Assembly (NCBI RefSeq): GCF_053078305.1
Contig: NZ_CP166879.1
Reading direction: 5' to 3' (one strand)
DNA length: 64,000 nt
Part shown: piece after piece, positions 44,117-63,102 of the stretch
How positions within the stretch are numbered: position 1 is the first letter of the stretch
Layout of the letters: every line of letters starts with the position of its first letter
Program-made: the position numbers and the translations under genes
Notes under the pieces: generated by a model
Seen by the model: the letters and a program-made list of their open reading frames with translations, nothing else
Databases searched by the model: none
What the model was told of the DNA's origin: nothing

Positions 44117-44486
44117 TCACCAGATTGAATACTTGACTTAATATTATCACTTGATCAAACAATCATAATGAATTTCATCTTTATTGTCTTTTTAAAAGTG
44201 ATAGCTAAGCTCGTTTTATTCATTAAACCAGATGATGCAATACTTTGGATCAAATAAATATTCCCACTAAGATGAATGTTCATTTTGCTTTCATAAGCCA
44301 TACGCTTGCCCTGCTGCAAGGACTAATCGAAAGTGGAACATTATTTCACGCAGTCATTTACATACGATGGCAAACCGTTTTTATTTGATTGCATCTCCCT
44401 AATCAAATACATATTTATTTCTCTACTACTAACTAGTTCAGCCAGTTATCACATCACATTTGAGCATTATAATTCCCCAAAAACAT

Positions 44487-44900
44487 TCATCTATTAATGG
44501 CGAATGAAATAGATAATGAATTAAAATAATCATCTAGTAAAAATTGTTTGATACCGGGATCATAAGCCCGCATAACAGAGTGTTTTGTTTCCAATAATGG
44601 GATAATAGTATTCACTCGAGGAACTACAGCACCTAAAAATATAATATCATTATTTTTTTGGACTAATAAAACAGGAAGAGTATCAAGATCTACCTCTGAA
44701 ACCATATCAGAATGCCGTTCAATATCCATCCAGATAAAGAAATCGTTTGGATATTTTTCCGATAATGCAATTAATGGATTTTTCCAGTCATTACAATTAT
44801 TGCACCAATCCGCACACAAACAAACAACTAGTTTATTATCATTATTAGCGGAAATAAACTCCCCAATCTGCTGGATATTATCCTCAGGGTAATATATCAT
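44487..44900 (-). CDS. Thioredoxin-like protein with C-x2-C-x-C motif
   Basis: 137 aa; CADWCNNCNDWK motif. Confidence 0.45.
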   Translation of the reverse strand: MIYYPEDNIQQIGEFISANNDNKLVVCLCADWCNNCNDWKNPLIALSEKYPNDFFIWMDIERHSDMVSEVDLDTLPVLLVQKNNDIIFLGAVVPRVNTIIPLLETKHSVMRAYDPGIKQFLLDDYFNSLSISFAINR

Positions 44901-44911
44901 TTCTTTTCCTT

Positions 44912-46147
44912 TTAATAATTAAGCAAATTATCCTTTGGTGAGGTATTCTTGTCCAAATGGAAAAGATGCCATGAAGCAATCCAGCGAACGAGTTGGCTTC
45001 CGTCAGAAAAATTAGTATTACACCAAGATGCAGTCACTGATTTCCCCAGGAACAGTCTTTCCTCATTACGATACTGTTGACACATCGATGTAACTTTATG
45101 AATATCAGGCATTCCTATGCCGGTTCCAAACACATTTAACCGAGAGGTAATCTCAGGCAACTTTTCATCCTTTGCCGGTAATAAATATTCCTTATCATCT
45201 ATATCAATGCCAGTTATCAGACTTACAGCAACAAACGCAATACGAGAAAGCTCTTCTTTTTCCATTAATGAAAGTAATAGAGGTAGAGTTTTTGTATTTG
45301 CATAATGGGCATAAAAAATGATTTGTAAATACTCAGGTAAACCAGAAATAAATGCAAAAGGGTAAGTCAGTTCAGAACAACATTGCCCAAGAAGTCGAAC
45401 TAACATCTCAGTTTGCTGGTTTTTCCTGATACCTTCAATGCCTCTAAGAGGCGGCAGGGTTAAATAATCATCAATCAACAGACATAATGGATTAATCATC
45501 ATTGACTTATCTGATGAAAGCCAACATGCAGCACTAACTGCTGAAAATCTGACTGATAATTCATTGCTACCAAAATATACCGTTAACGCAGGAAGATAGC
45601 TCTGTAATCCAAGTTTGCGAATATAATCCAGCACAGCTACCTTTTCTTGTATATTTCCGTTATCTAGTTTTTTTATCAAAAAATCTTCTGATAAGTGTAA
45701 TTTGCTCTGAGAACAAATATTTAATGCTATCTGAACCTCGGAAGGTATAGAGGAAAGTAAGAATTCATTAACAGTACCATAAACATGTTCTTTAGCTGAA
45801 TGTGATAACGCAGAGACATACCCATTCAACGTTGTATCTGCATATTTAGATACATACGACCAGGTTGCTTTCATCCAGGCAGGATTCTGACACTGATTCG
45901 CCAGAAAACCGCAAACAAACGCTTCTCCCTGAGAGTGCCAGCGTCTCAGTGCCGCATAGCTCTCCTCCCATCCATCATCACCAGCAACATGTAATCCCTC
46001 CAGATTAGCATCAATATATTGATTAAATTGCCTGAGATCGGCGCTTTTAACTAATGGCGAAAATCTGCTTTCTTCTTTCTGAAGCCAGTAAAATGCCGCA
46101 TTCGCGGCATGCTGACGAATAATCGGTTGTATTACCTGATGATTCAT
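44912..46147 (-). CDS. Hypothetical protein (about 411 aa from an internal start; track ORF extends to 46246)
   Basis: Long ORF downstream of the GHH effector; start at MNHQVIQP would abut the upstream stop. Confidence 0.4.
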   Translation of the reverse strand: MNHQVIQPIIRQHAANAAFYWLQKEESRFSPLVKSADLRQFNQYIDANLEGLHVAGDDGWEESYAALRRWHSQGEAFVCGFLANQCQNPAWMKATWSYVSKYADTTLNGYVSALSHSAKEHVYGTVNEFLLSSIPSEVQIALNICSQSKLHLSEDFLIKKLDNGNIQEKVAVLDYIRKLGLQSYLPALTVYFGSNELSVRFSAVSAACWLSSDKSMMINPLCLLIDDYLTLPPLRGIEGIRKNQQTEMLVRLLGQCCSELTYPFAFISGLPEYLQIIFYAHYANTKTLPLLLSLMEKEELSRIAFVAVSLITGIDIDDKEYLLPAKDEKLPEITSRLNVFGTGIGMPDIHKVTSMCQQYRNEERLFLGKSVTASWCNTNFSDGSQLVRWIASWHLFHLDKNTSPKDNLLNY

Positions 46148-46148
46148 A

Positions 46149-47177
46149 CTAGTCTTCTGCCTCATCATCAGTCTCATCATCTGACTGCCATTCAACAGAA
46201 TTAATGAGTAAATGCCATTCCTGTCCGTCGTGCCATGCTGCACCATACATTCCGGCCATTAGCATCACACCATCACCCACTGATAAATGCCCTACCGCTA
46301 CAGCTATTTCAGAAGGAAGATCCACAGGAATTAATGTATCACCATCCAGACACCATAGACCGTAATCAGATGTACACCACACTTTTCCGGCATGCCAGAC
46401 TATATCTTCGAAGGGAAGACTATAACCACCCGCAGAGACTTTTTCCCATTTATTCCCACGGCCTTTAAATAATATACCAGATTGACCACCAATGTAGACA
46501 TAACCATCCCCTGCACAACACACTGTTTCTAGATAGATGTTTGAGGGAAAATTAATTTGCTCCCATTCTGCTCCAGAAAAATGCCAGACATTTCCCTTAC
46601 CGCCGACTACATACAAATCATCATAGGAAAAACCATCTATATCTCTTAGTTTAAATTCATCGCCAAATCTACCTTTTTCTTTTGAGTAATCAAAAACCGG
46701 GAGATTCAAACAGAGTGACTGCCAGTCATTAACTCCGTCTCTGTATCCCACAGAGTTATTGTACCCAACAATATACAGTCTTCCTGAAATATTTTTAATT
46801 TTCGTTATTATATTTCTTAGAGGACCGTCAATTCCGAAAGGAATTTTTTTCTCTCTGCTATCATATTTACAACTACGGGAATAAACATATCCCTCATCAT
46901 CAACACAAACAACTTCGTCATAGCTATTATATGATGCACTACCTATATATAACTGCCCCATGTTTTTAAGTGGCTGAAGTGATATACAATCGTCTGGGCT
47001 ACCATCTAAATAGATCCCGACTTCACCTTTAGTTACTGTATTTTCATCAATAACACTTGCTTTTCGACTCTCTTTAATATTACGAACAGAAAAATGGAAA
47101 AAATCCTTATTTCTTACAGTACAATCCTTAATATACCATTTTTTAAAAATTGCAATGTTCTTATCAGTAATTTTCAT
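46149..47177 (-). CDS. Candidate immunity protein with repeated G/W-rich beta-propeller-like units
   Basis: Directly downstream of the GHH-nuclease effector; repeated ...G.....W... units; start taken at MKITDKNIAIFKKW. Confidence 0.4.
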   Translation of the reverse strand: MKITDKNIAIFKKWYIKDCTVRNKDFFHFSVRNIKESRKASVIDENTVTKGEVGIYLDGSPDDCISLQPLKNMGQLYIGSASYNSYDEVVCVDDEGYVYSRSCKYDSREKKIPFGIDGPLRNIITKIKNISGRLYIVGYNNSVGYRDGVNDWQSLCLNLPVFDYSKEKGRFGDEFKLRDIDGFSYDDLYVVGGKGNVWHFSGAEWEQINFPSNIYLETVCCAGDGYVYIGGQSGILFKGRGNKWEKVSAGGYSLPFEDIVWHAGKVWCTSDYGLWCLDGDTLIPVDLPSEIAVAVGHLSVGDGVMLMAGMYGAAWHDGQEWHLLINSVEWQSDDETDDEAED

Positions 47178-47184
47178 ATAAATA

Positions 47185-48828
47185 TTACCTCTTATTACCT
47201 GTAGGTGTTTCAGTATTCTGAGAATCAACTTCATCTTCAGTAAATGCTTTTCCAGCTACCGCTGGCATATCATCATCGCAATTCTTATAATAATTATCCA
47301 GTTGTTTTCTAAGGCAGGCTCTGCTGCATCTTGATTCCGGGAATGTTCGTTCAAATCCATCCAGGGCAATTTCTTTGGCATCTTCGTAATCAATTTTATC
47401 TTTATCGCTGAACCAGCCACTTTTCTTATAAGCTTTGATATCTTTGATCATCTCATCATGCATTTTGCCATGCGTTCCGTTTCCATTATTTGTGCCCTCT
47501 ACACAAACTGTCGGTGCCCCGCCTTTCGAATAACCACTGCAATGTCCTTTAGCCATTTCATCAGGAATAAGATGGTGGCCTGTCTGTCCGGGACAGCACC
47601 CTTTTCCAGTTTCGATACTCTTTTTGGCTCCGGTCTTATTATAATCAACGAGAAGGCATCGTCTTGCACGCGTACAGGGATTTATTCTCGCCAGCGCCCC
47701 CATTCCTGTTGCCATCATTTGAGATGGCGTCATATTTTTTAGCGTATTTTCCAGTTCAGCTTTGGCCTGTTTGACTAAAGATAAAATATCTTTTATCTCA
47801 TCTAATTTTTTATACGCTTCAATACCTAACTTGGCTGTATCATAAGCTGTACCAATTGCATCACAGACGTTCCATATTGTTGCAATTGTCTCGGTTACAA
47901 CTGCTCCAACGCCAGCAGCCGTAGCACCTATCGTACCCACGGCCCACCTTCCAGCCGCGTGTGCTGCTAGTTTTTCTGCTTTATGCAGAGCAGCAGTTTG
48001 TGCTTTATCAATAATTTCTTGTTTTAGTTGCTCAAGCATTGGCTCTATTAGTGAAGCCACTTTTTTATTAAAATCCTCCGTCAGTTCTTTCAATAATTTG
48101 TTATACTCCTCCAGGCCAAAACGTGGCTTAATCCACAAACCAGTACAATGAGAAAAAATCCATTCATTCTCCGGAGTTTTTAGTTTAGCGTATGTATTTC
48201 TGACTTTATCATCCAGCGTTTCCAGTTTCCCACCAATTTCTTTACCCATTAATTTCATGAAGTTTTTATTTTTTACATGATTCCTTCTGTTTTCCTCTTT
48301 CTTTTTTTCATCTTCATCATCATTTTTGTTATCTTCATCCGGTTTACATGCCTTCCTTATCCGATCTTCTTCCTTTTTACACTGTACAGGCATATCAAGA
48401 GTATCCTTATATGTGCCTGTAATAGTATTTCCTGGCTCCGAACCATGATTGTGCGTCATTAAATCTTCATGGCGTGCCACACACTTCCCTTCGAATTTTA
48501 CATTTGGCGACCATGATTTAAAGTAGGCTTTTCCTTTAATGACGCCGGTAATTACACCTTTGGGTTGGGATTGTGTAGCGGGTTCATCTCCGGTACTGGT
48601 TGAAAAAAAGGAAATATCTTCTTTAGCCACCATCGAATTGCATATGAATACGGTTATGGTTCCGTCCTTCATCGTTGAGGCATATGCAGTATTTGGATAA
48701 GGTACCACTATCGGGCCAGCCGGAGGAGAAGGCGGTGTCCAGCACGGATCGGGAAACACCGCTTTTGACACGCCGTCCGATGCCTTGGAGCTTGCCTCCC
48801 GGCTATTGATATAAACTTGAGTTTCCAT
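47185..48828 (-). CDS. T6SS effector: N-terminal DUF4150 (PAAR-like) domain, C-terminal HNH/EndoVII-fold GHH nuclease toxin domain
   Basis: 547 aa; N-terminal ...DPCWTPPSPPAGPIVVPYPNTAYAS...; Lys/Glu/Asp-rich linker; C-terminal CCPGQTGHHLIPDE. Confidence 0.7.
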   Translation of the reverse strand: METQVYINSREASSKASDGVSKAVFPDPCWTPPSPPAGPIVVPYPNTAYASTMKDGTITVFICNSMVAKEDISFFSTSTGDEPATQSQPKGVITGVIKGKAYFKSWSPNVKFEGKCVARHEDLMTHNHGSEPGNTITGTYKDTLDMPVQCKKEEDRIRKACKPDEDNKNDDEDEKKKEENRRNHVKNKNFMKLMGKEIGGKLETLDDKVRNTYAKLKTPENEWIFSHCTGLWIKPRFGLEEYNKLLKELTEDFNKKVASLIEPMLEQLKQEIIDKAQTAALHKAEKLAAHAAGRWAVGTIGATAAGVGAVVTETIATIWNVCDAIGTAYDTAKLGIEAYKKLDEIKDILSLVKQAKAELENTLKNMTPSQMMATGMGALARINPCTRARRCLLVDYNKTGAKKSIETGKGCCPGQTGHHLIPDEMAKGHCSGYSKGGAPTVCVEGTNNGNGTHGKMHDEMIKDIKAYKKSGWFSDKDKIDYEDAKEIALDGFERTFPESRCSRACLRKQLDNYYKNCDDDMPAVAGKAFTEDEVDSQNTETPTGNKR

Positions 48829-48995
48829 ATTAGATATTCATCTTTCTTATCGTAATTTCCCGTGGATACGGCAATCAGTATATTTATGAATTATTTATTA
48901 CCGGCATAGTTATAAATAAAATACTTAAATCAATACACAACACAAAACAACAAACCAATCTTTATGTACTTTCTTAATGAAGAAAGAAATGACTA

Positions 48996-49445
48996 TCACC
49001 TTTCTATTATGGGGAAGGTTAATCCCTTTGAAAATTTATTTCCAACATCAGACTCTTTGGTATAAATATTAGTAATCACACTTAATTTTGCACTAATTTT
49101 TATTTTTTCATTGTCTTTTCTAAAACTTTCAATCTCACTGCTTAATATAACCCAATCAAACATAACACTTTCCCCTGAATGTATTACAGTTAAGTGAGAC
49201 AATAATTCCTTGCTTGTAAGATTCGGACGGAGGTAAAATCCGTCACTCCCATTAAAATTCATTAATTTTATTGCTGGACCTGTTTTTCTTAAATACTCAA
49301 AGGGGACATAAATATCACGGCCACTATCATTCCGAAAATTAATATCAATCAACAAGTTATTTTTTTTAGTATACAAGCATTCAGAAGTTTTCGAGTTATC
49401 ACACTCAACCCAAATGGCAAAATCGTTTACACTAAGATCACTCAT
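48996..49445 (-). CDS. Candidate immunity protein for the upstream metallopeptidase effector
   Basis: 149 aa ORF immediately downstream of the effector. Confidence 0.4.
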   Translation of the reverse strand: MSDLSVNDFAIWVECDNSKTSECLYTKKNNLLIDINFRNDSGRDIYVPFEYLRKTGPAIKLMNFNGSDGFYLRPNLTSKELLSHLTVIHSGESVMFDWVILSSEIESFRKDNEKIKISAKLSVITNIYTKESDVGNKFSKGLTFPIIER

Positions 49446-49505
49446 TGTATTCCCCTAATTTCCATTCGATTTCGTATTATTAGTACAACAAATCACTCGT
49501 CGTAA

Positions 49506-50699
49506 CTACAGCATAACTTCACATTTCGTTGTTATATTGCGTTTAGAATTTTTCATTATATCATTAGCTTCTATAGCAATAGGCCAGCAATGTCTTTCCA
49601 GAACAATCGTGTTGTCCACTGCCGACATTATTGTTGATGAAGGGTCATTAGTAATTCCACCATCATATGGGACATTTATCTTATTATCCATTGTTCCATC
49701 TGGTTTATAGTATGCAACTGTTTCTCCACCTGCTGGATCATAAGCATATTCATCAGGTAAACCAAAGCAATGCCCGAACTCATGGGCATATATCCAATCA
49801 CGAGTTGAACCAGATACATTCATCTCGAATCCAGTAACACCTTCTCTTGGAAATTTTTTGTGAATATTCATTAAATAATGTTCGTTTGATTTTACCCATA
49901 AAATCTTAAATCGAACAGGTAGCTCAATATCTCCACAAATAGCATCTTTTAGTTTCAATTTGAATTTATTATTCCAGTATTTACTTACCCCTTTGAGCAT
50001 TTTCGCTTTTGCATTTTTTATGTTTTTTTTACTCACACCTGCACCACCCACAGTTTTAAATCTTACCGTCACTATAACTTTTCTATCTTTTATTATATTA
50101 ATATTTAATTTAAATCTTCTTTCAATGAGATAATTATGAGAAAGCCCATTAGAATCAAAGGCATCCGCATAACGCTTTGTAATGTTAACACTAACTTCTT
50201 TTTCGTAATTATCTTGCCAGCATAGCATTTTCAAGACGTTATCCCATATTCTATTCCCAACAGATATAGGCTCTGATAAATAATAGAATAAATCTGTATT
50301 TCCTGGCTGAGAACCGTGGTTGTGTGACATTAAATCTTCATGACGTGCAACGCATTTCCCTTCAAACTTTACATTTGGCGACCATGTCCTGAAGTAAGCT
50401 TTTCCTTTAATTACCCCGGTTATTACGCCTTTTGGCTGTGACTGCGTGGCTGGCTCATCTCCTGTACTGGTTGAAAAACAGGAAACATCTTCCTTTGCCA
50501 CCATCGAGTTACAAACAAATACGGTCGTTGTACCGTCTTTCAACGTTGAGGCATAGGCTGTGTTAGGATAAGGAACCACGATGGGACCCGCAGGAGGAGA
50601 TGGTGGCGTCCAGCAAGGATCAGGAAATGCAGCTTTAGATACACCATCAGATGCCTTTGAACAAGCCTCCCGGTTGTTGATATAAACACGCGTATCCAT
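49506..50699 (-). CDS. T6SS effector: N-terminal DUF4150 (PAAR-like) domain, C-terminal HExxH zinc-metallopeptidase-like toxin domain
   Basis: Start taken at MDTRVYINNRE; first about 130 aa nearly identical to the 47185..48828 effector; C-terminal YAHEFGHCFGLPDEY. Confidence 0.7.
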   Translation of the reverse strand: MDTRVYINNREACSKASDGVSKAAFPDPCWTPPSPPAGPIVVPYPNTAYASTLKDGTTTVFVCNSMVAKEDVSCFSTSTGDEPATQSQPKGVITGVIKGKAYFRTWSPNVKFEGKCVARHEDLMSHNHGSQPGNTDLFYYLSEPISVGNRIWDNVLKMLCWQDNYEKEVSVNITKRYADAFDSNGLSHNYLIERRFKLNINIIKDRKVIVTVRFKTVGGAGVSKKNIKNAKAKMLKGVSKYWNNKFKLKLKDAICGDIELPVRFKILWVKSNEHYLMNIHKKFPREGVTGFEMNVSGSTRDWIYAHEFGHCFGLPDEYAYDPAGGETVAYYKPDGTMDNKINVPYDGGITNDPSSTIMSAVDNTIVLERHCWPIAIEANDIMKNSKRNITTKCEVML

Positions 50700-50703
50700 A
50701 TTT

Positions 50704-51717
50704 TTATCCTCTGTAATACTCTGCAACCAGCGCAACCCGAAGTCCACTGTCACCACTGAAATGAACCAGTGCTCTTTCTCCCGTATCAGGGAATCGACAC
50801 ATCATTTCATTCAGATAGGCCAGTGTCAGTGGCCCGGATGCCGCCCCGGTTTCTCCCAGATTGCTGGCAAGCTGGTAATGAGGGTATTGTTTTTTTTTCT
50901 TTTCCAGACACCGGGTGATTGCCAGAGCAGTTTCACGGAAATACCATGACTCACCAGTGACACCACTAATATGAAAGTCTGTTTCTGCTAATAAAACCCC
51001 TGCATCCTGAATTGCTTTCCGGATTGCAACAGATAATCCTTTAGCCATATTAGCTTTATCATTTTGTAGGATATGAGCATCTTCGTTGCTGACACCGACA
51101 CCGGTAATACAAATGCCCTGAATACAACTATCTGGTTTACAAAACACAATAGCCCCGGCACCTTCCCCCGGAATAAAACCATCCCTGTTGCTGGTGCATA
51201 ATACGCGTTCATGAGTAAGAAGATAATTTATTCTTGCTGGTGAAAAATAACTATCCACACCGACCACAAGAGCATATGAAGCAAGTCCGGAGTATAGAAT
51301 ACGCTGAGCTTCTGTAATCGCAGAACCAATCCCTGTCTTCCCTCCCTGTATACATATAGAAGATTCATGCCAGGTTGTTTTTACTCTACTAAAAAGAAAC
51401 TCATTTCCTGATGAGCCATAACATTGCTCTGCACATTCTGATAAAAGAAAAATCAGACATGTATTTTCTTTTGTCATTCCAGGTGTTTTTAAAATACACT
51501 CAGCCACTACATTTTCAAACATCCAGAGTAGCCGCTCATCACCCCAGGTATCATTCTTATATAATTGAGCACCAATAAGTGGTTTTCCATTTAAGTCATA
51601 AAAAGTTGTTTCAGCAAAATGATCCAGACCCGAGCGAATGGCCGCTGATGCAGAAGGAACTGAATATCCTATACTGCAACACATTCCGGCTGCCGCAATA
51701 AATAATGGTGATGCCAT
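50704..51717 (-). CDS. Beta-ketoacyl synthase-like (thiolase-fold) protein with degenerate active site
   Basis: 337 aa; N-terminal PLFIAAAGMCCSIGYS and RDGFIPGEGAGAIVF resemble KAS I/II blocks; positions aligned by eye to the catalytic Cys and His are Gly/Lys and Glu. Confidence 0.5.
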   Translation of the reverse strand: MASPLFIAAAGMCCSIGYSVPSASAAIRSGLDHFAETTFYDLNGKPLIGAQLYKNDTWGDERLLWMFENVVAECILKTPGMTKENTCLIFLLSECAEQCYGSSGNEFLFSRVKTTWHESSICIQGGKTGIGSAITEAQRILYSGLASYALVVGVDSYFSPARINYLLTHERVLCTSNRDGFIPGEGAGAIVFCKPDSCIQGICITGVGVSNEDAHILQNDKANMAKGLSVAIRKAIQDAGVLLAETDFHISGVTGESWYFRETALAITRCLEKKKKQYPHYQLASNLGETGAASGPLTLAYLNEMMCRFPDTGERALVHFSGDSGLRVALVAEYYRG

Positions 51718-51722
51718 AATAA

Positions 51723-52865
51723 CTATGCTCCTGTTTCTGTTACAGGTTTATTCGTTAATTCTGGATTATTGTTTTTTTCTCCGCATCCACCGCAGGTTTC
51801 CCCTCCCCCCGCAGCTCGTTGCTGCCACCAGGTTTTACCCACAGGCCCTATAGCAACAGTGTGAATTTCCTGAATCCGTCGCTTAAGAGGTATACTTGTA
51901 CGCCAGACTACACTAAAACGCTCCTCATTGGGTTCAAAATAAAGCGTATCAACAACCGGCATTAATTCATGAGCTTCATAATCCATCGTTAAAATTCTAA
52001 CGGGCATTTGGTTTATATGAGGTAGCTGAAATTCAATGACTGAGCGTTCTTTATGCATATTTATCAACATAACTTTTTCACCACCCTGCGGATATGCGGT
52101 CTGTTGATCAGGTGGTGCGCTCTGAAAATAACGCTCATCAAAATCCTCCGGAAGAAAGGGGGAGACTTCTGCACGCCATCGTTCGTCATATGTTCCGGCA
52201 TACTGTAAACGTAACGGATGGTTTCTTGGCCGGGCGGAAAATGCTCCCGGCTCCGGATGTGATTCTGGACGTGTCACGCTATCTTGTGGTAGTTCAACCA
52301 ATGGCAGACGTGAGTTAATGAATACGGTTTCATCCCGATGATTGCCATAACCGATTCCAACAATATTGCTGGAAAATATTTCCCGATTCTCATTTCCCTG
52401 TACATCTTTCCAGACATACTCTCCACCAAAGGCATTACCATAATGTAATGAGACTGACTGTATGAACTCTGTATCAGATATAATCCAGTCTGACGTCTTT
52501 TTCTGCCAGTAGCGCGGACCAAATACCTTTAGACTCTTATCGACTTGACCTACAATTGCTCTTGATTCTGTCTGATAATTATTCCCCTCGCTTACAAAAT
52601 AAGTTGTTGCGTTAAATAAAACATCACATTTCTCTTTATACCTGACATAATCGGCCTCATATAATACAGCAGAGAATCCAGGTTCACCCACATATATGTC
52701 ACTTTCTACCAATGGCTGAGGTGGTAATAGTGGGCGAGGGCGTCGATTGTTTACGGGGATCTGATAAGTTGCTTTAATTACAACTACAAGATAATCTTTC
52801 CCATTTTTATCTGTTGCAGTGAAAACATCAGCTATCGTGTGTTTTGCAGCATTAAAAATTTCCAT
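51723..52865 (-). CDS. Putative DUF2169-family T6SS adaptor
   Basis: 380 aa ORF between vgrG and the DUF4150 effectors, the canonical position of DUF2169 adaptors; assignment is positional. Confidence 0.45.
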   Translation of the reverse strand: MEIFNAAKHTIADVFTATDKNGKDYLVVVIKATYQIPVNNRRPRPLLPPQPLVESDIYVGEPGFSAVLYEADYVRYKEKCDVLFNATTYFVSEGNNYQTESRAIVGQVDKSLKVFGPRYWQKKTSDWIISDTEFIQSVSLHYGNAFGGEYVWKDVQGNENREIFSSNIVGIGYGNHRDETVFINSRLPLVELPQDSVTRPESHPEPGAFSARPRNHPLRLQYAGTYDERWRAEVSPFLPEDFDERYFQSAPPDQQTAYPQGGEKVMLINMHKERSVIEFQLPHINQMPVRILTMDYEAHELMPVVDTLYFEPNEERFSVVWRTSIPLKRRIQEIHTVAIGPVGKTWWQQRAAGGGETCGGCGEKNNNPELTNKPVTETGA

Positions 52866-52877
52866 TTTAATATAACC

Positions 52878-53420
52878 TCAGTTTACCTGCACAGACCCAC
52901 CTTTTAACCTGTGTGTTGCCTGCGCCTGACTGTCAATATAAAGCGCGCGTATCTGAAGCAGTCCATCCGCCGATAAAACAATTTTTGACTCGCCGCACTG
53001 GAGCACTAATTCTTGTTTCGCTGTCAAAACAACTCGCTCTGTATTTAGTTCGTCTTCAGTACATTTTTTCGTCTCTGAATGATATCTTTCTGTTAAATTC
53101 TCCGGAAGTATTCCGGTCACTACCGGATGAGAATAATTGCCAGAGAGAAACTGCACAGTGCATAATCGTCCGTTATACTCCGTAGTTACAGTTCCCAGAC
53201 CCAAAGCTGCAACAGGTTTATCTTCATGAGGACACTGAATCAATATTTCTCCAGAGTCTTTGACACTGACAATTCTGCCGACAACCAACACAGGGATATC
53301 ACTGACATGCGCCTGGGATTTACTAGCCTGATGAGATAAAATATTTTCCAGCAAATGTGTTGTACTGGTCAGTTCCTCTTCTGGCTGTGGGACGTATATA
53401 TCATGCAGTTCCTTTATCAT
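52878..53420 (-). CDS. Hypothetical protein (180 aa) translationally coupled to vgrG
   Basis: Start overlaps the vgrG stop at 53420. Confidence 0.4.
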   Translation of the reverse strand: MIKELHDIYVPQPEEELTSTTHLLENILSHQASKSQAHVSDIPVLVVGRIVSVKDSGEILIQCPHEDKPVAALGLGTVTTEYNGRLCTVQFLSGNYSHPVVTGILPENLTERYHSETKKCTEDELNTERVVLTAKQELVLQCGESKIVLSADGLLQIRALYIDSQAQATHRLKGGSVQVN

Positions 53421-55408
53421 TAGTTCTCCAGAATTTTCTTCCCTTTCATATTCATATCACCATCAGCTTTATAAAACTGATCACCTGTTGTTCCCAACGA
53501 CAATTCATGTCCATTTATAGTGATGTAGCCATCTTTATCCATGCGCAAAGTACTCTTACCACATACAAACTCGATGGAATCGCCTACTGTCACTGTAAGA
53601 GTTTCCCCTACAGTAACAGACTGAGATTTATCCACAGCCTCGGTATCATTCCCTGTTACCTTACTATCCTGATCATTACCTACGCTCTTGCTACGATTGT
53701 TCGTGACAGTCAGAGATTGATCATTTCCTACGCTTACATTTTGATCGTGAGTTACAGTGACGGTCTGATCATGTCCCCCGGCATTCTCCTTACCCACCGT
53801 CACCGTCTGGCCCAGCCCAACGGTAATACTCTGGTTGTTACCGATGGTTTCGGTATGGTCCACTTTCACATCAGTAGTGCGGTTGTTCAGCACTTCCGTA
53901 TCCATGTTCTTCTGTGCATGGATATAGACCTGTTCACCGCCCGTGGCGTCTTCAAACCGCAGCTCGTTAAATCCGCTTCCTTTATAGGTCTTCGACCGTA
54001 TCGTCATCTGCGTCTTCGTCCCCGGCAGACTCCCCGGCGAACGGTTGTCCTCATGGTAGGTCCGCCCCATGATTATCGGCTGGTCCGGGTCGCCGTTCAG
54101 GAAGTCTACAATCACTTCCTGGCCGATGCGCGGTATCGCCAGGTTACCGAACCCCGGCCCCGCCCACGCCTGCGACACCCTCACCCAGCATGAACTCGCC
54201 TCCGTCATCCCGTGATAACGGTCCCAGTGAAACTTCACCCGTACCCGGCCATGTTCATCGCAGAAGATTTCCTCTCCCGCAGGCCCGGTGACAATGGCAC
54301 TCTGCGGGCCGTCCACCTTCGGTTTGCTTTGCACCCGTGGACGCCACGTCCGGTCCGCCGGTATCACCTCTAACTGATTGCCCAGCGTGGTTCCTCTCCC
54401 CTGGCTGCCGTGCAGCGCCTGCGGCTGGCTTCCTGACAGTATGCTCTGTACCACCTGCCATTCACGGTTCAGCATCTTCTGCGGATGCCCCGTCAGCGTA
54501 AACCGCGTTCCCGGCCACAGCCGCGGCGAATTACTCTGCCCTGTGGCCTTTTCCGCATCACTGCGCAGGCTGTCCATCTGGTACAACGTGAAATCCTTGC
54601 CGTGCTGTTCATCCTTGAACCTTCCCGGATAATCAAATATTTCATACTGCGCCAGCTGTCCGTTCAGGTTCTCACCCTGCTGCTCATACATCCCCGGCCA
54701 GTCCGGCACCTTAAACGTGTAATCCTGGCTCTGCACCGACGACGGGCGGACATGCGCCTCATAACGGAACATACTGACACACTCTGTCTCCGCTCCTGCC
54801 GATGTGTCCGGGTTAAACGGAAGCTCTCCCGCCTGTGACAGCCCCGCCACATCGTCGCACAGCGTCAGCTTCTGCTCCGGACTGTCCGCCGCAAACCGCT
54901 CAAAGAAGAAAATCCCCTCCTCCGCCCACAGCCGCGCCAGAAACGCCAGGTCGCTTTCCCCGTACTGCACACAGAACTCCCGCGCCGGATGGTCCTCATA
55001 AAACAGCGGCGTCCACTCCGTGACGCCGTTCTCGTTCAGTAACGTGGCCGATATCGTCCGGATATCCTGCTGCTGGAAGATACGGAAGTTCTGCCGCAGC
55101 CCACACCGCCATAACGGCGGCTGGATACACAGGTGATAACGCATCTGCCAGCCGTTATTCTCCTGCATCCCAAACCCCGCCACCACGCCGGTGACATAAC
55201 GCAGCGGGATGACGCCCTGCCAGATGGTCAGCGTCGCCTTCTTCTCCAGCAGCATCTCCGCCGTCTGCATAAAAGAGTCGCTGGCAACATCCACACTCAT
55301 CACAAACGGATATGACCCGCCCTGGATTAACCGGAAGCTCACCACTGCAAAGGTGTCCGGCTCCTGGCCGTCAACCTCCAGCGTAAAGCGCAGACCTTTT
55401 AAGGACAT
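53420..55408 (-). CDS. vgrG: T6SS spike protein VgrG (paralog 2)
   Basis: 662 aa, MSLKGLRFTLEVDGQEPDTFAVVSFRL...; gp27/gp5-like body and C-terminal beta-helix repeats (TVGxxQSxTV). Confidence 0.9.
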   Translation of the reverse strand: MSLKGLRFTLEVDGQEPDTFAVVSFRLIQGGSYPFVMSVDVASDSFMQTAEMLLEKKATLTIWQGVIPLRYVTGVVAGFGMQENNGWQMRYHLCIQPPLWRCGLRQNFRIFQQQDIRTISATLLNENGVTEWTPLFYEDHPAREFCVQYGESDLAFLARLWAEEGIFFFERFAADSPEQKLTLCDDVAGLSQAGELPFNPDTSAGAETECVSMFRYEAHVRPSSVQSQDYTFKVPDWPGMYEQQGENLNGQLAQYEIFDYPGRFKDEQHGKDFTLYQMDSLRSDAEKATGQSNSPRLWPGTRFTLTGHPQKMLNREWQVVQSILSGSQPQALHGSQGRGTTLGNQLEVIPADRTWRPRVQSKPKVDGPQSAIVTGPAGEEIFCDEHGRVRVKFHWDRYHGMTEASSCWVRVSQAWAGPGFGNLAIPRIGQEVIVDFLNGDPDQPIIMGRTYHEDNRSPGSLPGTKTQMTIRSKTYKGSGFNELRFEDATGGEQVYIHAQKNMDTEVLNNRTTDVKVDHTETIGNNQSITVGLGQTVTVGKENAGGHDQTVTVTHDQNVSVGNDQSLTVTNNRSKSVGNDQDSKVTGNDTEAVDKSQSVTVGETLTVTVGDSIEFVCGKSTLRMDKDGYITINGHELSLGTTGDQFYKADGDMNMKGKKILEN

Positions 55409-55425
55409 AATGACCTCCCTGAAAA
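53910..55425. repeat. About 1.5 kb direct repeat (vgrG 5' region plus leader), copy 2; partner at 61392-62899
   Basis: Near-identical DNA across the two vgrG 5' regions; antisense track ORFs 54485..54838 and 61959..62312 are almost identical as a result. Confidence 0.8.
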
Positions 55426-55450
55426 AATCATAAGTTTATTTTTGTATCAG

Positions 55451-55717
55451 TTAGTTATGACGTACAATAAAATGACTGGCTATCAACGTTGCTCCGCAGG
55501 TTGTTTTATCACCATCATGTGCAGCCTGTTTTCCATTAACAGAAAAACCCTGTCCAGATGCTATAATATTCGTCGTTCCATGCCCCTCTATCGGGCAGAT
55601 TACTTGGTCACCATCACAAGCTACAGGCTGACCTTCATGCAAAAAATCCGCACTGGCACTAATAACAATGCCTCCATGAGATGTTTTATCACCGAGAGTG
55701 ATTAATGATTTCATCAC
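55451..55717 (-). CDS. PAAR-domain protein
   Basis: 88 aa; ...GQPVACDGDQVICPIEGHGTT... Confidence 0.75.
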   Translation of the reverse strand: MMKSLITLGDKTSHGGIVISASADFLHEGQPVACDGDQVICPIEGHGTTNIIASGQGFSVNGKQAAHDGDKTTCGATLIASHFIVRHN

Positions 55718-55769
55718 CTTACCCTTTAATATAATGTATTATGTACGATTTTATTTTTCTGTGCATTTT

Positions 55770-56600
55770 TTAAGGTGTTAATTGCCCAGAGTTATCACCC
55801 TCATAAGATTCTTTTGGTACTGAATGTAACTGCACTTTCCCATATCGACAAACAATCCACCAGATAAAAGATGATATAATGGAGAACGGAAATATAAAAA
55901 CCACATAAAGAGGCCATAGATATACTTTCATCGTTCTTTCACCTTCATCACAAGGCCAGGAACAAAATGGCCATGGCTTATAATGCTCTATGATCTCGGC
56001 AGGCGTCAGGTAAATTTTTTTTTGGCGGAAGTCGTCCCAGTCATACTTTTCAGGTATTCGTAGGTTATCCGAACCTTTATGTATAAAATCTTTTATATAC
56101 TCAACAATAGGCATAAAATTATAATGTCCGTCAAATTCAATTTTATGCTCAACTTTCTGACCAAATCGATCATGCGAATAGAGTAATAAATAAGTTGTTT
56201 TAAGACCTCCGAGGAAATCCAAATCATTTATATTACAAATATATTCTTCATCATTCAAATAAAAATATATTCTTTTTGTTTTTCTATTTAAAACGATATC
56301 AGAATTTCGTTTTATGTTATGTATAAAGCCACGAGTCAAAAACATAAAAAACATTGGGAGTAACATCATCAGCAAGCTATCTATAAGCTTCCTAAAGATG
56401 CTAACTGAATCGGTTGTAGAAAACATATGATATATAATTATTATTGCTGCAACAGACCATGTGAATGAAAAAAAAAGCGTCATAACTCCATATGTCACGC
56501 TATCATTTACAGTAGCTGTTCTTAACGTAAGGCAATGTCGACTTAATGAAATAAACTGCAATCTCATGTCATAACAATTTACTGTTTTTTTGTTCATCAC
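55770..56600 (-). CDS. Putative membrane immunity protein for the upstream effector
   Basis: 276 aa with hydrophobic helices (VMTLFFSFTWSVAAIIIIYHMF, LLMMLLPMFFMFLT); directly downstream of the large effector. Confidence 0.4.
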   Translation of the reverse strand: MMNKKTVNCYDMRLQFISLSRHCLTLRTATVNDSVTYGVMTLFFSFTWSVAAIIIIYHMFSTTDSVSIFRKLIDSLLMMLLPMFFMFLTRGFIHNIKRNSDIVLNRKTKRIYFYLNDEEYICNINDLDFLGGLKTTYLLLYSHDRFGQKVEHKIEFDGHYNFMPIVEYIKDFIHKGSDNLRIPEKYDWDDFRQKKIYLTPAEIIEHYKPWPFCSWPCDEGERTMKVYLWPLYVVFIFPFSIISSFIWWIVCRYGKVQLHSVPKESYEGDNSGQLTP

Positions 56601-56621
56601 ATTCTCGCCATTCTTAATTAT

Positions 56622-59576
56622 TCAAAATGATGGTGGCATACTTTTATTAACCACACCCATATATTGATTAAAATCAAATTCCAGTTTATACTCACAAAGA
56701 ATAGATACATCGTTCATAAAGCCCGTGTTTGGCCTGTATCTAAAACTAAGAGCAACGTCTTCAACATGATGTTTATCCACCTGCTTGCTAAAACGAAGTA
56801 AAACCCCCCCGTTTTCTGGAAACATTCTTTCAATAGTAAAGCCACTAGTTATTTCTCTGATATCACTAACATCAGGTACAAAATCTGGAAGATAAAGAAC
56901 AAACTGTGCCGGCCCGATATAGCAAGTAGAAATGGTATCTCCAACTAATTTCCATTGAGTATAAACATCTGGATGTGTGAGATAACTTGCGAGAGTAGAG
57001 TCAACTAATATAGGTTTATAGCGAACCTTAAAATAATCAACAATAGCTTCATTAATATTTTGAAATTGTTTCATATCTTCGTCAGTGCTGTTTTCATCCC
57101 TGATAAACGCACCAAAAATAGTATGATTCACCCAACGTTCAAATGAGGTATGATTATCTTCATCAGCTTCCAGTCCTAACCATATACCAACAAGAATTAG
57201 CACTAATCCGACGACAACTATCCATCCCACAATAGGTATAGCTCCTGCTGAAAGCGCCCCAGTAACAGCACTGGGTAAAAAACTCGCAGTGACAGAAGGA
57301 AATGCAACCATTAAAGACCCCATTGCACCTGCAATTGCTGATTCAAAACGTAAACCTTTACCATCCGTATCTGATACCCACCATTTAGACAAATCAGAAA
57401 ATAAAGAAAAACCGATTGCAGCAATCCCCAAATACTTACCGAACGCTGCTGACGCAATTTTTTTTAAAATCCATCTTTTGTAATATTCACCAGCCCATAC
57501 AACTCCTTTATCAATCGAATTTCTTTTCATGAAATTTTCAACAGATACTAACAAAGCATTACACCCAGCCAAAGCGCCTGAAAGTGCAGCAATGAAATTT
57601 AATACTTTTCCACATGATATTTTATCATCTGTTATTTCTTTTTTTAGATCAACATATGCAGAAAATAAATAAATCATACCAAATAGTAATAAGCCAGCGG
57701 ATGCGGCAGTTACGCTGACAGAAGTAGATAATTTACCAGAAACTAATTTTTCGGTTGCTCTTGCACTCTGTAAATCTTGCTCCACTACTACAATCAAATC
57801 TCTTTTCCCTCGCCCACTAAAATAAGTAATTTTAGCTTTATCCAGTTCTACCATACCGCTTTCAACCAAAATCTTAAACTGACTGGTAACAGGATTACGT
57901 TCAAATAAATCATTGGTAATAGTATATCGTGCCCTTAATATACCCAATAATTGTCTAATATCCCCACCATCTGCAGCGGCATTTATCTTAGCCAATGCAG
58001 AACCTTTTAATTCAGGGCGACCTTTTATATTTTTACTTTTTAACAAATAAGCAACAATATTAGTCGTAAGAAGGTCAGTTCCAGCGGTAGCTCGCATAAA
58101 AACATCTTTCTTTGATATTTCCTGAATCACGTTATCAGCAGCCCCAAGCCATCCACCTACAGAATTTGCATCTTTTCCAAAAGGGCTATAGGCCAATAAT
58201 GCCTTATAGACAGGACTGTTTGTATCATTAAGCCAAACGTTTAATAATGCTGTTCGAGTATCTTTATCCTCGCGTCCTGGAATAGGATTACCAACACCAT
58301 TAATCATCATAGCAATAGACATTTCCAAACTATATGCTGAAATTTTTACATTTCGGTCATAAAGCATTAATGCACTGGCTACTGATAGACGGTTATTTTG
58401 ACAAGTTTCCTCTGCACTGCTTAGCCAAGCACAATGATCGATTGTAGCTAACTCTGCCTGTCGCAGCACGATTTCTGCATTCTCTTGAATGATTTTCTTT
58501 TCTTCTAAAAAAGCTAAGAATTTCTCCTGATTTATACGTTTAGCAAACCTAGCACCGCTAGCTGAACGAGCTTCATCTATTAACTCATAGAAATGACAGA
58601 CATCGCGATCGCCATCAACTAATGAAGTATCCCCTTTACTTGCACTGAGACTAATTAACGTATTGAATATGAGCTGGCATATAATATCTTCTTCATAAAA
58701 TCTCTTACTTTTAATGTGTAGTTTACTAACATCTAATCGCATAGCTTTAGGTAATATGTAATCCTCTGATTCAGATTTTATATCATTTATCTGATGTCTA
58801 TATAATTCTGCTATTGCAGATACATCAATAGCAATCCCTTCGGCATCTAGCAGGGCAATTACAGCTGGAACTTTAGGTTGATAATTTGGAAAATATGATT
58901 TTAATGATTTCAATTCATTGACATTCGAAACAAAAGGCTCTTCCTCGCTCCATCGCATATCCATTTTTTTTTCTTCAGGTTTATACTCCTCTACCCACTG
59001 TTCCAGAGCATCTATCGGAAGAATATTTTTTTGTATAGAATAATCATGGTTGCAATTAACTAACTCTGCTACATCCACAGCCTGCATAAACCGTTGGCGA
59101 GATGCCAGGTTAGATAAGAGATCATTTACCCTTGTTTGAGTCCACAGATGGGAACTATAACCAATCCATACCTCTGTTGCATCTGTTTCAATCCAGACGT
59201 TTGGCATCTGCTTACCACTTGCATAGGCATCACGCGAGTTATATTGCTCAAGATATTGAATTTGCAACTCCTGAAACAATCCATTCCCTTGATGTTCGTG
59301 TATAATTAACTTTGTATATTTTGGTGATGACAGATAAGTATAAACATATCCTACACGAAGAGCACGCAGTGTATATTTAGAGCAATTCAGCGTAGCAACA
59401 CAGGTAAACCCTTCTTCAAGATTATATTCACAACCTTCCCATGAAAATTTTTGTGAATCATCAAGACATTTAGGAATAATGCCATAGCGTATCGGAAGTA
59501 GAGGAATACGTCCTATCTCTTGTGTGCATGGTTTTGCGGATATAATATTTTCATTCGCCATAAATACACTCTCCAA
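56622..59576 (-). CDS. Large putative T6SS membrane-targeting (pore-forming, VasX-like architecture) effector
   Basis: 984 aa; C-terminal third has several long hydrophobic helices (e.g. GWIVVVGLVLILVGIWLGL); sits between an adaptor-like gene and a membrane immunity candidate. Confidence 0.45.
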   Translation of the reverse strand: MESVFMANENIISAKPCTQEIGRIPLLPIRYGIIPKCLDDSQKFSWEGCEYNLEEGFTCVATLNCSKYTLRALRVGYVYTYLSSPKYTKLIIHEHQGNGLFQELQIQYLEQYNSRDAYASGKQMPNVWIETDATEVWIGYSSHLWTQTRVNDLLSNLASRQRFMQAVDVAELVNCNHDYSIQKNILPIDALEQWVEEYKPEEKKMDMRWSEEEPFVSNVNELKSLKSYFPNYQPKVPAVIALLDAEGIAIDVSAIAELYRHQINDIKSESEDYILPKAMRLDVSKLHIKSKRFYEEDIICQLIFNTLISLSASKGDTSLVDGDRDVCHFYELIDEARSASGARFAKRINQEKFLAFLEEKKIIQENAEIVLRQAELATIDHCAWLSSAEETCQNNRLSVASALMLYDRNVKISAYSLEMSIAMMINGVGNPIPGREDKDTRTALLNVWLNDTNSPVYKALLAYSPFGKDANSVGGWLGAADNVIQEISKKDVFMRATAGTDLLTTNIVAYLLKSKNIKGRPELKGSALAKINAAADGGDIRQLLGILRARYTITNDLFERNPVTSQFKILVESGMVELDKAKITYFSGRGKRDLIVVVEQDLQSARATEKLVSGKLSTSVSVTAASAGLLLFGMIYLFSAYVDLKKEITDDKISCGKVLNFIAALSGALAGCNALLVSVENFMKRNSIDKGVVWAGEYYKRWILKKIASAAFGKYLGIAAIGFSLFSDLSKWWVSDTDGKGLRFESAIAGAMGSLMVAFPSVTASFLPSAVTGALSAGAIPIVGWIVVVGLVLILVGIWLGLEADEDNHTSFERWVNHTIFGAFIRDENSTDEDMKQFQNINEAIVDYFKVRYKPILVDSTLASYLTHPDVYTQWKLVGDTISTCYIGPAQFVLYLPDFVPDVSDIREITSGFTIERMFPENGGVLLRFSKQVDKHHVEDVALSFRYRPNTGFMNDVSILCEYKLEFDFNQYMGVVNKSMPPSF

Positions 59577-60765
59577 TCACCACCCCAACTTGCTTTTTTA
59601 TCATAGGCGAGGGGGAATTTAATTCTAATACTTCCCATGCTTGTTCCGGTGAGCTTTGACAAACCAGTAGAAAATGCTCTCGGATGTGGTACAAAGAGAG
59701 GTTGTCTTTCATAGAGGGAATAAAATTTAATACTACATCCACTGCATCACCAAAATTCTTCCCTTGGTGTTTTTGTAATGTTAGCCAATCTCTCACTAGT
59801 AACTCATTAAAATAATTGCTATTAAGAAAACTTTTTTTGGAGGTTCTTATTTTCATTATTGCATCAAGACGATTTTCTGGTGAAATAGTAACTTCAGCTA
59901 GGATTGAGCAATATAATTCTATCTGCTCATCAGATTCAGATGAATCATCCAAAAAAACACTAACTATTGTTGTTATCATGTTGTATTTATAAATACCCAG
60001 CAACCTAAATATATCATGTATTTTTTGACATTGTTCCGTTCGTCGAGTTAAAGTTTTTTTTGCATGATTTATTAACTCTTCCAATGACAACTGAAATCTA
60101 TATTCTTCCAGAATTGAAATATATTTAAGTTCTCTGTGTGTTAGTTTGAAAAACGACAAATCCTTTAAACTAGGCTTATCCACAACTTGATTATATAAGT
60201 ACCAAGAAACCTTGTTATATAAATTTTCGCACCAGATAATTGAGTTTATACTACCAAGTAAACGCTGTCTTTTACTTGCGATCAGACATCCAATAATAAG
60301 ACTTAAATTATTCGGATACCAGTTTAAATGTATGACATTTGACTTGTGAGTATAGAGTGTTGAGAATTTCGAAAGATGCCAGCAAATTTCCTTTAATGAT
60401 GAAGAACTTATAATTATCAATCCACCGTTACACTTCGCCCATTGTGAAACAAAATGCCTTACAATATCATGACTATGGCTTACATTTATTAATAGCGGTC
60501 CTTTCTCTCGTTTGTAATCATATTTGGTATCTTCCCATAACCATTGATAATAAATAAATGGCTCTATTTCTTTTAGCTGTGTCAGTAATCCGAGATTTGG
60601 TGGTATTGTATTATCATCAGGTTGTATTACCTTCCTAGTACAGCGCTCAATGTTTATAGGATGTAATAATAAGTAAATAGCATCATCATCATTTTGGATT
60701 GATTGAAGGTCAAAATCATCCGTACTTACTTTTATATTATGTCGGGCCAAAAGCGTGGCAAACAT
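59551..60765 (-). CDS. Putative T6SS adaptor/chaperone (DUF4123-like by position)
   Basis: 404 aa ORF; start overlaps the vgrG stop; vgrG-adaptor-effector-immunity order. Confidence 0.4.
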   Translation of the reverse strand: MFATLLARHNIKVSTDDFDLQSIQNDDDAIYLLLHPINIERCTRKVIQPDDNTIPPNLGLLTQLKEIEPFIYYQWLWEDTKYDYKREKGPLLINVSHSHDIVRHFVSQWAKCNGGLIIISSSSLKEICWHLSKFSTLYTHKSNVIHLNWYPNNLSLIIGCLIASKRQRLLGSINSIIWCENLYNKVSWYLYNQVVDKPSLKDLSFFKLTHRELKYISILEEYRFQLSLEELINHAKKTLTRRTEQCQKIHDIFRLLGIYKYNMITTIVSVFLDDSSESDEQIELYCSILAEVTISPENRLDAIMKIRTSKKSFLNSNYFNELLVRDWLTLQKHQGKNFGDAVDVVLNFIPSMKDNLSLYHIREHFLLVCQSSPEQAWEVLELNSPSPMIKKQVGVVIGECIYGE

Positions 60766-62882: not shown

Positions 62883-63062
62883 AATGACCTCCCTGATTTA
62901 TTCACGGACCAAATGATTCTCACCATGCAGCAAAGGGTGCCAGTGCAGCGTTACACTCATCTTTACATTTTCAGGTACGCTACCGCCCGGGTTTCCGGCA
63001 TCCGCCATCTCCCTCATGAAAGCGTAACTCCTTACTGACACTCATTTTTTACACGTACAAAA

Positions 63063-63095
63063 ACAACATCCTGCACGAAGGCAGGATGTTGTTGA
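63063..63095 (-). terminator. Hairpin (attenuator/terminator) downstream of hcp
   Basis: caacatcctgc/acgaagg/caggatgttgttg, followed on the transcribed strand by a T-rich run. Confidence 0.45.
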
Positions 63096-63102
63096 CTCAG
63101 AT

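Follow-up and report, generated by a model that had tools for sequence, protein, structure and literature searches.

Gene Organization of the Locus

The 64-kb window under study (the whole stretch of DNA analysed) carries on its minus strand a tight operon with the gene order vgrG-DUF6484-DUF2169-tvpD-effector, as follows from the Pfam and NCBIfam calls. The fourth gene, designated here tvpD, is a 337-aa open reading frame with an ATG start (50704..51717), confirmed in the list of open reading frames of the window. Its product was recognized as a TvpD/PefC-like pseudo-ketosynthase by the match to NF004798, the AF2 model and the structural match to FabF. Upstream of tvpD lie the genes for a VgrG spike protein of 662 aa (53420..55408; TIGR03361, E = 6e-179), for a 180-aa DUF6484 protein, i.e., a short TvpC-like VgrG mimic (52878..53420; Pfam PF20093, E = 1.2e-6), and for a DUF2169 chaperone of 380 aa, TvpA (51723..52865; Pfam PF09937, E = 1.4e-74 over aa 22-322). 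In the E. coli A16 chromosome, which is 99.4% identical over 44400-55422, the two latter proteins are named by RefSeq "DUF6484 domain-containing protein" and "DUF2169 family type VI secretion system accessory protein". The operon spacers are 0-12 nt long: the ATG of the DUF6484 gene overlaps the vgrG stop codon (ATGA), 5 nt separate the DUF2169 stop from the tvpD ATG, and 4 nt lie between the tvpD stop and the ATG of the first effector gene at 50699. This ATG is most likely the true start of effector 1, since RefSeq starts the gene at the same codon in E. coli A16, and the GTG at 50756 in the list of open reading frames most likely represents an over-extension.

The genes downstream of tvpD are also encoded on the minus strand. 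Effector 1 (49506..50699, 397 aa) comprises a PAAR-like (DUF4150/PIPY) N-domain (PF13665, E = 3e-27) and an HExxH metallopeptidase-like C-domain, which gives a weak Peptidase_M6 match (E = 0.0012, aa 303-330) and is found again on PAAR and VgrG carriers. Thus, the PF09937 and PF13665 matches bear out the earlier note, which had placed the 337-aa protein between a DUF2169 adaptor and a DUF4150 effector. The next gene codes for a 149-aa protein (48996..49445), presumed from its position alone to confer immunity to effector 1; it had neither a family match nor a homolog among 80 related loci. Effector 2 (47185..48828, 547 aa), which is Tse7/PefD-like, joins a PAAR-like N-domain (PF13665, E = 2.4e-26) to a Tox-GHH2 nuclease domain (PF15635, E = 3.6e-9). 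The PAAR-like domains of the two effectors are 90% identical (121 of the first 135 residues), after which the sequences diverge completely; this suggests that a single TvpA-TvpD pair probably serves both. The cassette continues with a beta-propeller protein in the PefE/Tsi7 immunity position (46149..47177; "WD40/YVTN/BNR-like repeat-containing protein" in RefSeq), a PefF/PA0101-like protein of the TIGR02270 family (HEAT/armadillo-like; 44912..46147, E = 1.5e-24) and a thioredoxin-like protein in the PefG position (44487..44900; TIGR01068, E = 5.8e-6; "thioredoxin domain-containing protein" in RefSeq). Most of this tvp cassette is rare in E. coli, being present in 8 of 5,426 complete genomes.

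Family Membership and Gene Context

The best NCBIfam match of the 337-aa protein was NF004798/PRK06147 (E = 6.8e-63), with aa 2-335 aligned to profile positions 3-344 of 349. The score of 213 bits falls under the curated equivalog cut-off of 342 bits, which explains why RefSeq names the protein "hypothetical protein"; source annotations reading "3-oxoacyl-ACP synthase" also occur for the family. The P. mirabilis homolog likewise fails the cut-off (202 bits), whereas that of P. aeruginosa PA7 passes it (506 bits), so that the cut-off leaves out the Enterobacterales branch and a score below it is no sign of non-membership. The BLASTP comparisons clearly showed homology to both PA0098 and PMI0754. 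The PA7 ortholog of PA0098, whose gene sits between the DUF2169 and PAAR-like effector genes, is 32% identical over the full length (E = 7e-49), and the P. mirabilis ATCC 29906 homolog of PMI0754 is 41% identical (E = 2e-79). Judging from these sequence comparisons, the E. coli gene can be assigned as a divergent, unannotated member of the known TvpD/PA0098/PefC-PMI0754/PRK06147 "thiolase-like" family, where PMI0754 is presumably pefC according to the gene order in PMC3764213 and PMC5714391.

To describe the gene context, relatives were collected from one genome per GTDB species (360 in total), and the best 80 loci were examined. With whole stop-to-stop ORFs as input, the iterated HMMs of VgrG/DUF6484 and of the effector C-terminus drifted together, and length-resolved labels with first-round matches were used for these families instead. 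The best 80 of the 360 loci come from Gamma-, Beta-, Alpha- and Deltaproteobacteria, Planctomycetota and others, and they share an invariant neighbourhood. In 78 of these 80 loci the gene directly upstream, on the same strand, codes for a DUF2169 protein, and in 77 the next gene downstream is of the DUF4150 kind (the three downstream exceptions are contig ends), so that the co-occurrence with both partners considered in the earlier note holds across species. VgrG/DUF6484 was found in 77 of the best 80 loci, and the module was always linked to one VgrG; the beta-propeller gene follows the effector in 67, the TIGR02270 protein is encoded in 65 and the thioredoxin-like protein in 18. Even metagenome members with 26-27% identity are encoded beside DUF2169 and Tox-PAAR-like genes, one of these loci having DUF6484, VgrG, TssG and ClpV as well. 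Two orphan modules consist of TvpD and an effector without DUF2169 (locus L054 and the first copy in locus L014), which suggests that TvpD is an effector-proximal partner. The conserved neighbourhood of tvpD contains no genes of fatty-acid metabolism, whether for ACP, acyltransferase or others, and the genuine E. coli fabF lies elsewhere, in the fabH-fabD-fabG-acpP-fabF cluster. A housekeeping role in fatty-acid synthesis was rejected on the grounds of the T6SS gene context and the missing catalytic triad (see below).

Ketosynthase Fold of TvpD

In Pfam searches, E. coli TvpD gave only a marginal ketoacyl-synt match (PF00109, E = 0.002, aa 132-192) and no match to Ketoacyl-synt_C (PF02801); true FabF proteins carry both. 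A single-sequence phmmer search against FabF in the PDB yielded E of about 1e-4, a profile built from 65 family sequences reached E = 2.8e-13, and hhalign of the family alignment with E. coli FabF gave a probability of 95.9%. In the profile comparisons, the N-terminal strand of TvpD aligns with FabF RVVVTGLGM..., and the RDGFIPGEGAGAIVF block (aa 178-192) with FabF RDGFVLGDGAGMLVL, just as the earlier note had recognized by eye when it compared these two regions with KAS I/II enzymes. The AF2 model, for which the same 65-sequence alignment served as input, has a mean pLDDT of 94.3 and a pTM of 0.93. When it was compared with the PDB by Foldseek, the best matches (E of about 5e-21) were all to FabF/KAS II or to ketosynthases of type II PKS, with a query-normalised TM of 0.80-0.83 at an identity of 13-16% (14% for the top ones, all FabF/KAS II). 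The kinship of E. coli TvpD to KAS enzymes is therefore genuine yet remote. FabF is longer than TvpD by about 75 residues, and in TvpD the substrate tunnel may thus not exist.

The hydrophobic N-terminus of TvpD forms the first beta-strand of the modelled fold (E5-14, pLDDT 91), and it is therefore not a signal peptide. The periplasmic acylase with a signal peptide, proposed for the P. mirabilis protein (PMC3764213), was rejected on this ground and on the alignment of the same segment with the N-terminal strand of FabF.

The Former Active Site

In every alignment that covers the region, the nucleophile of FabF, C163, stands opposite K127 of E. coli TvpD within G126-K127-T128-G129. The position of FabF H340 is taken by E289, both in the hmmsearch alignment to H. 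pylori FabF and by a constant offset from the D-A-G anchor: the offset is 52 at both ends when FabF D-A-G 290-292 and G-H 340-341 (numbering that counts Met1) are compared with TvpD D238-A239-G240 and G288-E289. At the same offset, FabF K335 corresponds to A284. A shift of the register by one residue, which aligns the G-A-A motifs, puts FabF H340 on the invariant G288. The equivalent of H303 varies with the register, being G252 in the ungapped comparison, G255 by hhalign and H249 by hmmsearch. H249, the sole His among the candidates, lacks conservation (33 of 180 family sequences). No alignment register of E. coli TvpD against FabF restores an intact Cys-His-His triad. This agrees with the earlier note, which had seen Gly/Lys and Glu at the places of the catalytic Cys and His residues: G126-K127 stand at C163 and E289 (or G288) at H340.

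Some of the comparisons had to be treated with caution. When the family profile was run by hmmsearch against only the E. coli FabF sequence, the alignment was visibly mis-registered over positions 124-175 and was discarded, and the C-terminal half of the extended and global hhalign runs is of low confidence; for these reasons, the H303 and H340 equivalents are given as register-dependent, and the loss of the triad was called by relying only on the absence of His from any plausible column. The FabF homologs among the matches listed were at least 88% identical, too uniform for a FabF profile, and were left unused.

An alignment of 180 family sequences (the query, 97 database matches and the homologs from 80 genomic loci) clearly showed that the loss of the catalytic residues is common to the family. 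The nucleophile column contains R in 87, H in 45 and K in 38 sequences (R/H/K in 170), and Cys in none of the 180. Column 289, at the position of H340, is occupied by E in 107 and D in 57 sequences (E/D in 164 of the 180), and His is absent from columns 286-290 in the whole set. Column 252 is D in 130 of the 180 sequences, and G255-E256 is near-invariant. The whole TvpD family therefore represents a degenerate ketosynthase whose triad has been swapped for a conserved basic-acidic set; together with the hhalign probability and the TM values given above, this upholds the description of TvpD as a thiolase-fold protein that lacks the Cys-His-His triad. Text searches of PMC3764213, PMC5714391, PMC7714669, PMC11883445 and PMC13373197 found no mention of such a replacement. 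As a separate observation, four distant family members have a Cys two residues before the nucleophile column and retain the G-H motif.

Discussion

The family to which E. coli TvpD belongs has been met in several studies of T6SS. Alteri et al. (2013) showed that the disruption of PMI0754 in the P. mirabilis pef operon abolishes pef-dependent killing, and that the mutant is rescued only by the gene supplied along with all downstream genes, which leaves room for polar effects; the same authors speculated that PMI0754 is a periplasmic acylating enzyme with a predicted signal peptide (PMC3764213). Later, the pefDE effector-immunity pair was found insufficient alone, the whole operon being sufficient (Alteri et al., 2017; PMC5714391). 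From genomic context, Liu et al. (2020) proposed PRK06147 as a fourth class of T6SS adaptors, with 74.4% of 407 homologs adjoining DUF2169, and also saw PRK06147 with an effector in the absence of an adjoining DUF2169 gene (PMC7714669). Sachar et al. (2025) used the "thiolase-like" gene as a marker of DUF2169 synteny type A, giving it no role; their deletion of DUF2169 in P. aeruginosa failed to be complemented (PMC11883445). Finally, Monlezun et al. (2026) gave PA0098 the name TvpD and proposed from models that it assists the PAAR-like domain as a co-chaperone, Class II Tvp systems being defined by a DUF6484-type TvpC, TvpA and TvpD. In their AlphaFold pre-complex PA0096-PA0097-PA0098-Tse7(PAAR), with an ipTM of 0.753, PA0097 and PA0098 make a groove around the PAAR domain, and it is structure prediction that provides the published support for the binding of TvpD to the PAAR-like domain or to TvpA (PMC13373197).

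The earlier note had taken the 337-aa protein for an undescribed T6SS accessory component. This part of its reading did not hold, since the family, PRK06147/NF004798, already figures in PMC3764213, PMC7714669, PMC11883445 and PMC13373197. Its view of the protein as a degenerate ketosynthase stood, and its guess of a non-catalytic co-chaperone as the probable role agrees with the published model, itself a structural prediction (PMC13373197). The evidence spoke neither for nor against its other suggestion, a lipid- or acyl-binding partner. E. coli TvpD thus adds an unannotated family member and is no new kind of T6SS component.

Taken together, the data make it likely that TvpD is a non-enzymatic, cytoplasmic co-chaperone derived from a KAS II-type ketosynthase, in which the thiolase fold has been kept and the Cys-His-His triad lost. 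TvpD and TvpA would jointly bind the PAAR-like (DUF4150/PIPY) N-domain of each effector encoded downstream and shield it. A trimer of the short DUF6484 protein (TvpC), which mimics VgrG, would be the initial site of this binding, and the tip of the cognate VgrG the next one; the accessory proteins would come off prior to firing. In the E. coli locus, one TvpA-TvpD set might plausibly serve both the metallopeptidase-like effector 1 and the Tox-GHH2 nuclease effector 2. Published AlphaFold models and the phenotypes of polar mutants, all from other species, suggest that TvpD may physically bind the PAAR-like domain, and the same lines of evidence point to a need for TvpD in effector delivery.

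One feature fits a simple shield poorly: the residues that replaced the triad (127, 252, G255-E256 and 289) are strongly conserved, and a purely passive shield has no obvious need for them. They might be thought to serve catalysis, TvpD being an active enzyme that transfers or condenses acyl groups and thereby lipidates or modifies the effector or the immunity protein. With the thiolase/KAS fold, polar residues preserved at the former active site, the "3-oxoacyl-ACP synthase" source annotations and the 2013 suggestion for PMI0754 (PMC3764213), such an activity has some appeal. It is nonetheless highly improbable when the 180 sequences offer neither a Cys in the nucleophile column nor a His at the H340 position, the hydrophobic N-terminus is a modelled beta-strand with no signal peptide, and the conserved neighbourhood is devoid of fatty-acid genes, those for ACP and acyltransferase included. 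Alternatively, TvpD may be a ligand-binding pseudoenzyme in which the remodelled pocket (K/R/H127, D252, E256, E/D289) accommodates an effector peptide or a small molecule, with an acyl chain, pantetheine and CoA as candidates; TvpD would then act as a specificity-determining or regulated adaptor and not as a passive shield. We regard this as unlikely: a buried basic-acidic cluster could merely fill and stabilise the vacated active site, the published models seat the PAAR domain in the TvpA/TvpD groove, outside the former pocket (PMC13373197), and a protein so much shorter than FabF possibly has no substrate tunnel. The proposal keeps some weight because the replacement residues are conserved, and across phyla at that, position 127 being basic and positions 252, 256 and 289 acidic; the orphan TvpD-effector modules (L054, the first copy in L014, and those of PMC7714669) also speak in its favour.

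A different role was raised by Monlezun et al., according to whom the baseplate cavity may be taken up by Tvp proteins, the smaller TvpA/TvpD being enough where the PAAR protein bears a toxin domain (PMC13373197). TvpD would be in this case bulk or a structural filler of the cavity, or else a checkpoint in the assembly of the VgrG-PAAR-like spike, effector chaperoning being secondary. The link of every module to one VgrG accords with such a role, but the idea is speculative in PMC13373197 itself and does not account for Class I systems, which do without TvpD; we consider it quite improbable. A non-enzymatic co-chaperone of the PAAR-like domain is hence the reading we prefer.

Among the known systems, the P. 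aeruginosa VgrG1b cluster, a Class II Tvp system with PA0098 as its TvpD, belongs to the same NF004798/PRK06147 family and has in common with the E. coli locus the order vgrG, DUF6484, DUF2169, tvpD, PAAR-like Tox-GHH2 effector, beta-propeller and TIGR02270 genes. Compared to PA0098, E. coli TvpD is divergent (213 bits vs. the 342-bit cut-off); in addition, the E. coli locus has an extra PAAR-like effector of the metallopeptidase type and a small presumed immunity gene right after tvpD, and its VgrG is 662 aa long vs. the 700-800 aa typical of Tvp-linked VgrGs. The closest characterised relative is PefC (PMI0754) of P. mirabilis (41% identity for the ATCC 29906 homolog, which also lies below the NF004798 cut-off with its 202 bits). 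The layout of the pef operon is shared as well, with a PefD-like GHH2-nuclease PAAR-like effector followed by PefE-like, TIGR02270 and thioredoxin-like genes, but it has one effector where the E. coli locus has two. The sequence gives no support to the view of its authors that PMI0754 is a periplasmic acylating enzyme.

With FabF/FabB, TvpD shares the thiolase fold, the N-terminal strand, the DGFxxGEGAG loop and the G-x-x-GAA-G region. It differs from them in its low identity (14%), in the replacement of C163 by K127, K335 by A284 and H340 by E289, in the absence of a conserved H303 equivalent, and in its T6SS context, which contrasts with a fab or PKS context. The chain-length factor (CLF, KS-beta) of type II PKS also has a ketosynthase fold without the nucleophilic Cys and is a non-catalytic partner; the actinorhodin CLF (1tqy_B) was among both the sequence and the fold matches of TvpD. 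However, the partner of CLF is an active KS-alpha, and CLF shapes the polyketide tunnel, whereas TvpD has no KS partner gene and is encoded in a secretion cassette. As to the other T6SS adaptors, DUF4123 (Tap/Tec), DUF1795 (Eag) and DUF2169 (TvpA) are, like TvpD, encoded directly 5′ of the cognate effector; the adaptors are unsecreted and have been proposed to load effectors onto VgrG/PAAR (PMC7714669, PMC11883445). The folds of these three are unrelated to that of TvpD, which is the only one to come from a metabolic enzyme fold, and, unlike them, TvpD nearly always accompanies DUF2169 and is seldom found alone.

Conclusions

In this work, we identified TvpD in E. coli, which completes the Class II Tvp cassette in this species. 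Naming the Enterobacterales branch of the family TvpD/PefC flags the adjoining genes as T6SS effectors. The new detail is that throughout the family the Cys-His-His triad has given way to a conserved basic-acidic set, which provides specific residues for mutation; the conservation of this remodelled site is where the value of the finding now lies. If the site did bind a ligand or an effector peptide, TvpD would be a functional pseudoenzyme acting as a specificity-determining or regulated adaptor. In its proposed role as a co-chaperone, TvpD would plainly illustrate how the fold of a metabolic enzyme can be recruited for chaperoning in secretion.

Tandem effectors and the HExxH toxin module

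In the Tvp cassette, a single pair of genes for the DUF2169 protein TvpA and the ketosynthase-like TvpD is followed by two PAAR-like effectors in tandem, effector 1 (49506–50699) and effector 2 (47185–48828), both on the minus strand. Their first 135 amino acids are 90% identical and the remainders are unrelated, the C-terminal part being an HExxH domain in effector 1 and Tox-GHH2 in effector 2. Such an arrangement has the look of a polymorphic toxin that was inserted or duplicated.

The HExxH domain (aa 136–397 of effector 1; 49509–50294, minus strand) was not assigned to any Pfam family in the Pfam comparison, where the match to Peptidase_M6 was weak. Relatives with 40–50% identity were found in many bacteria, both as separate proteins some 265 aa long and as fusions with canonical PAAR (PF05488) or with the C-terminus of VgrG. 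The domain is a metallopeptidase-type toxin module of the T6SS that has been shuffled between carriers, and it appears to be uncurated. The adjoining gene (48996–49445), encoding 149 aa, gave no family match.

Distribution and genomic setting of the cassette

Few E. coli strains carry the cassette: at least 80% of 44400–55500 is present in only 8 of the 5,426 complete genomes searched, and the hosts of these eight isolates were otter, pig, human, baboon and chicken. VgrG fragments were matched in 1,721 genomes. The GC content is 35–43% across most of 42–60 kb, the T6SS effector region, vs. 52–59% at the window start (1–8000); the 54–56 kb bin containing VgrG has 53.5% GC, and GC skew is negative throughout 42–64 kb. 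This strong composition contrast and the skew are consistent with horizontally acquired cargo.

Upstream of the cassette lies another spike module (55451–63621, minus strand), comprising the genes for Hcp (63103–63621), VgrG (60765–62882), a 404-aa protein (59551–60765; weak Tla1-like match), a BTH_I2691-family effector (56622–59576), a hydrophobic protein of 276 aa (55770–56600) and a small PAAR protein (55451–55717), all on the minus strand. E. coli A16 lacks this module, and its Hcp gene immediately precedes the Tvp-linked VgrG.

Annotation and possible mobility of TvpD

The curated cut-off of NF004798 (NCBIfam) is 342 bits; Pseudomonas TvpD scores 506 bits, while E. coli (213) and Proteus (202) fall below it, and therefore PGAP labels the Enterobacterales branch "hypothetical protein". 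The genes concerned lie at 50704–51717 of the window and in the related loci L006 (2273–3277) and L055 (6425–7447). One database match, P0028 (256 aa), covers 38% of the TvpD query at 83% identity and contains PF13665. Apparently it was called as a gene on a short contig and extends from the C-terminal end of TvpD into the PAAR-like domain, which might reflect a frameshift, a fusion or an artefact.

Orphan modules of TvpD plus a PAAR-like effector occur in L054 (6908–8035) and as the first KS-like copy of L014, with no DUF2169 or VgrG gene found nearby. The genomes bearing them hold a complete cassette as well, e.g., L017 in the L054 genome. The orphan modules thus suggest that TvpD travels with the effector.
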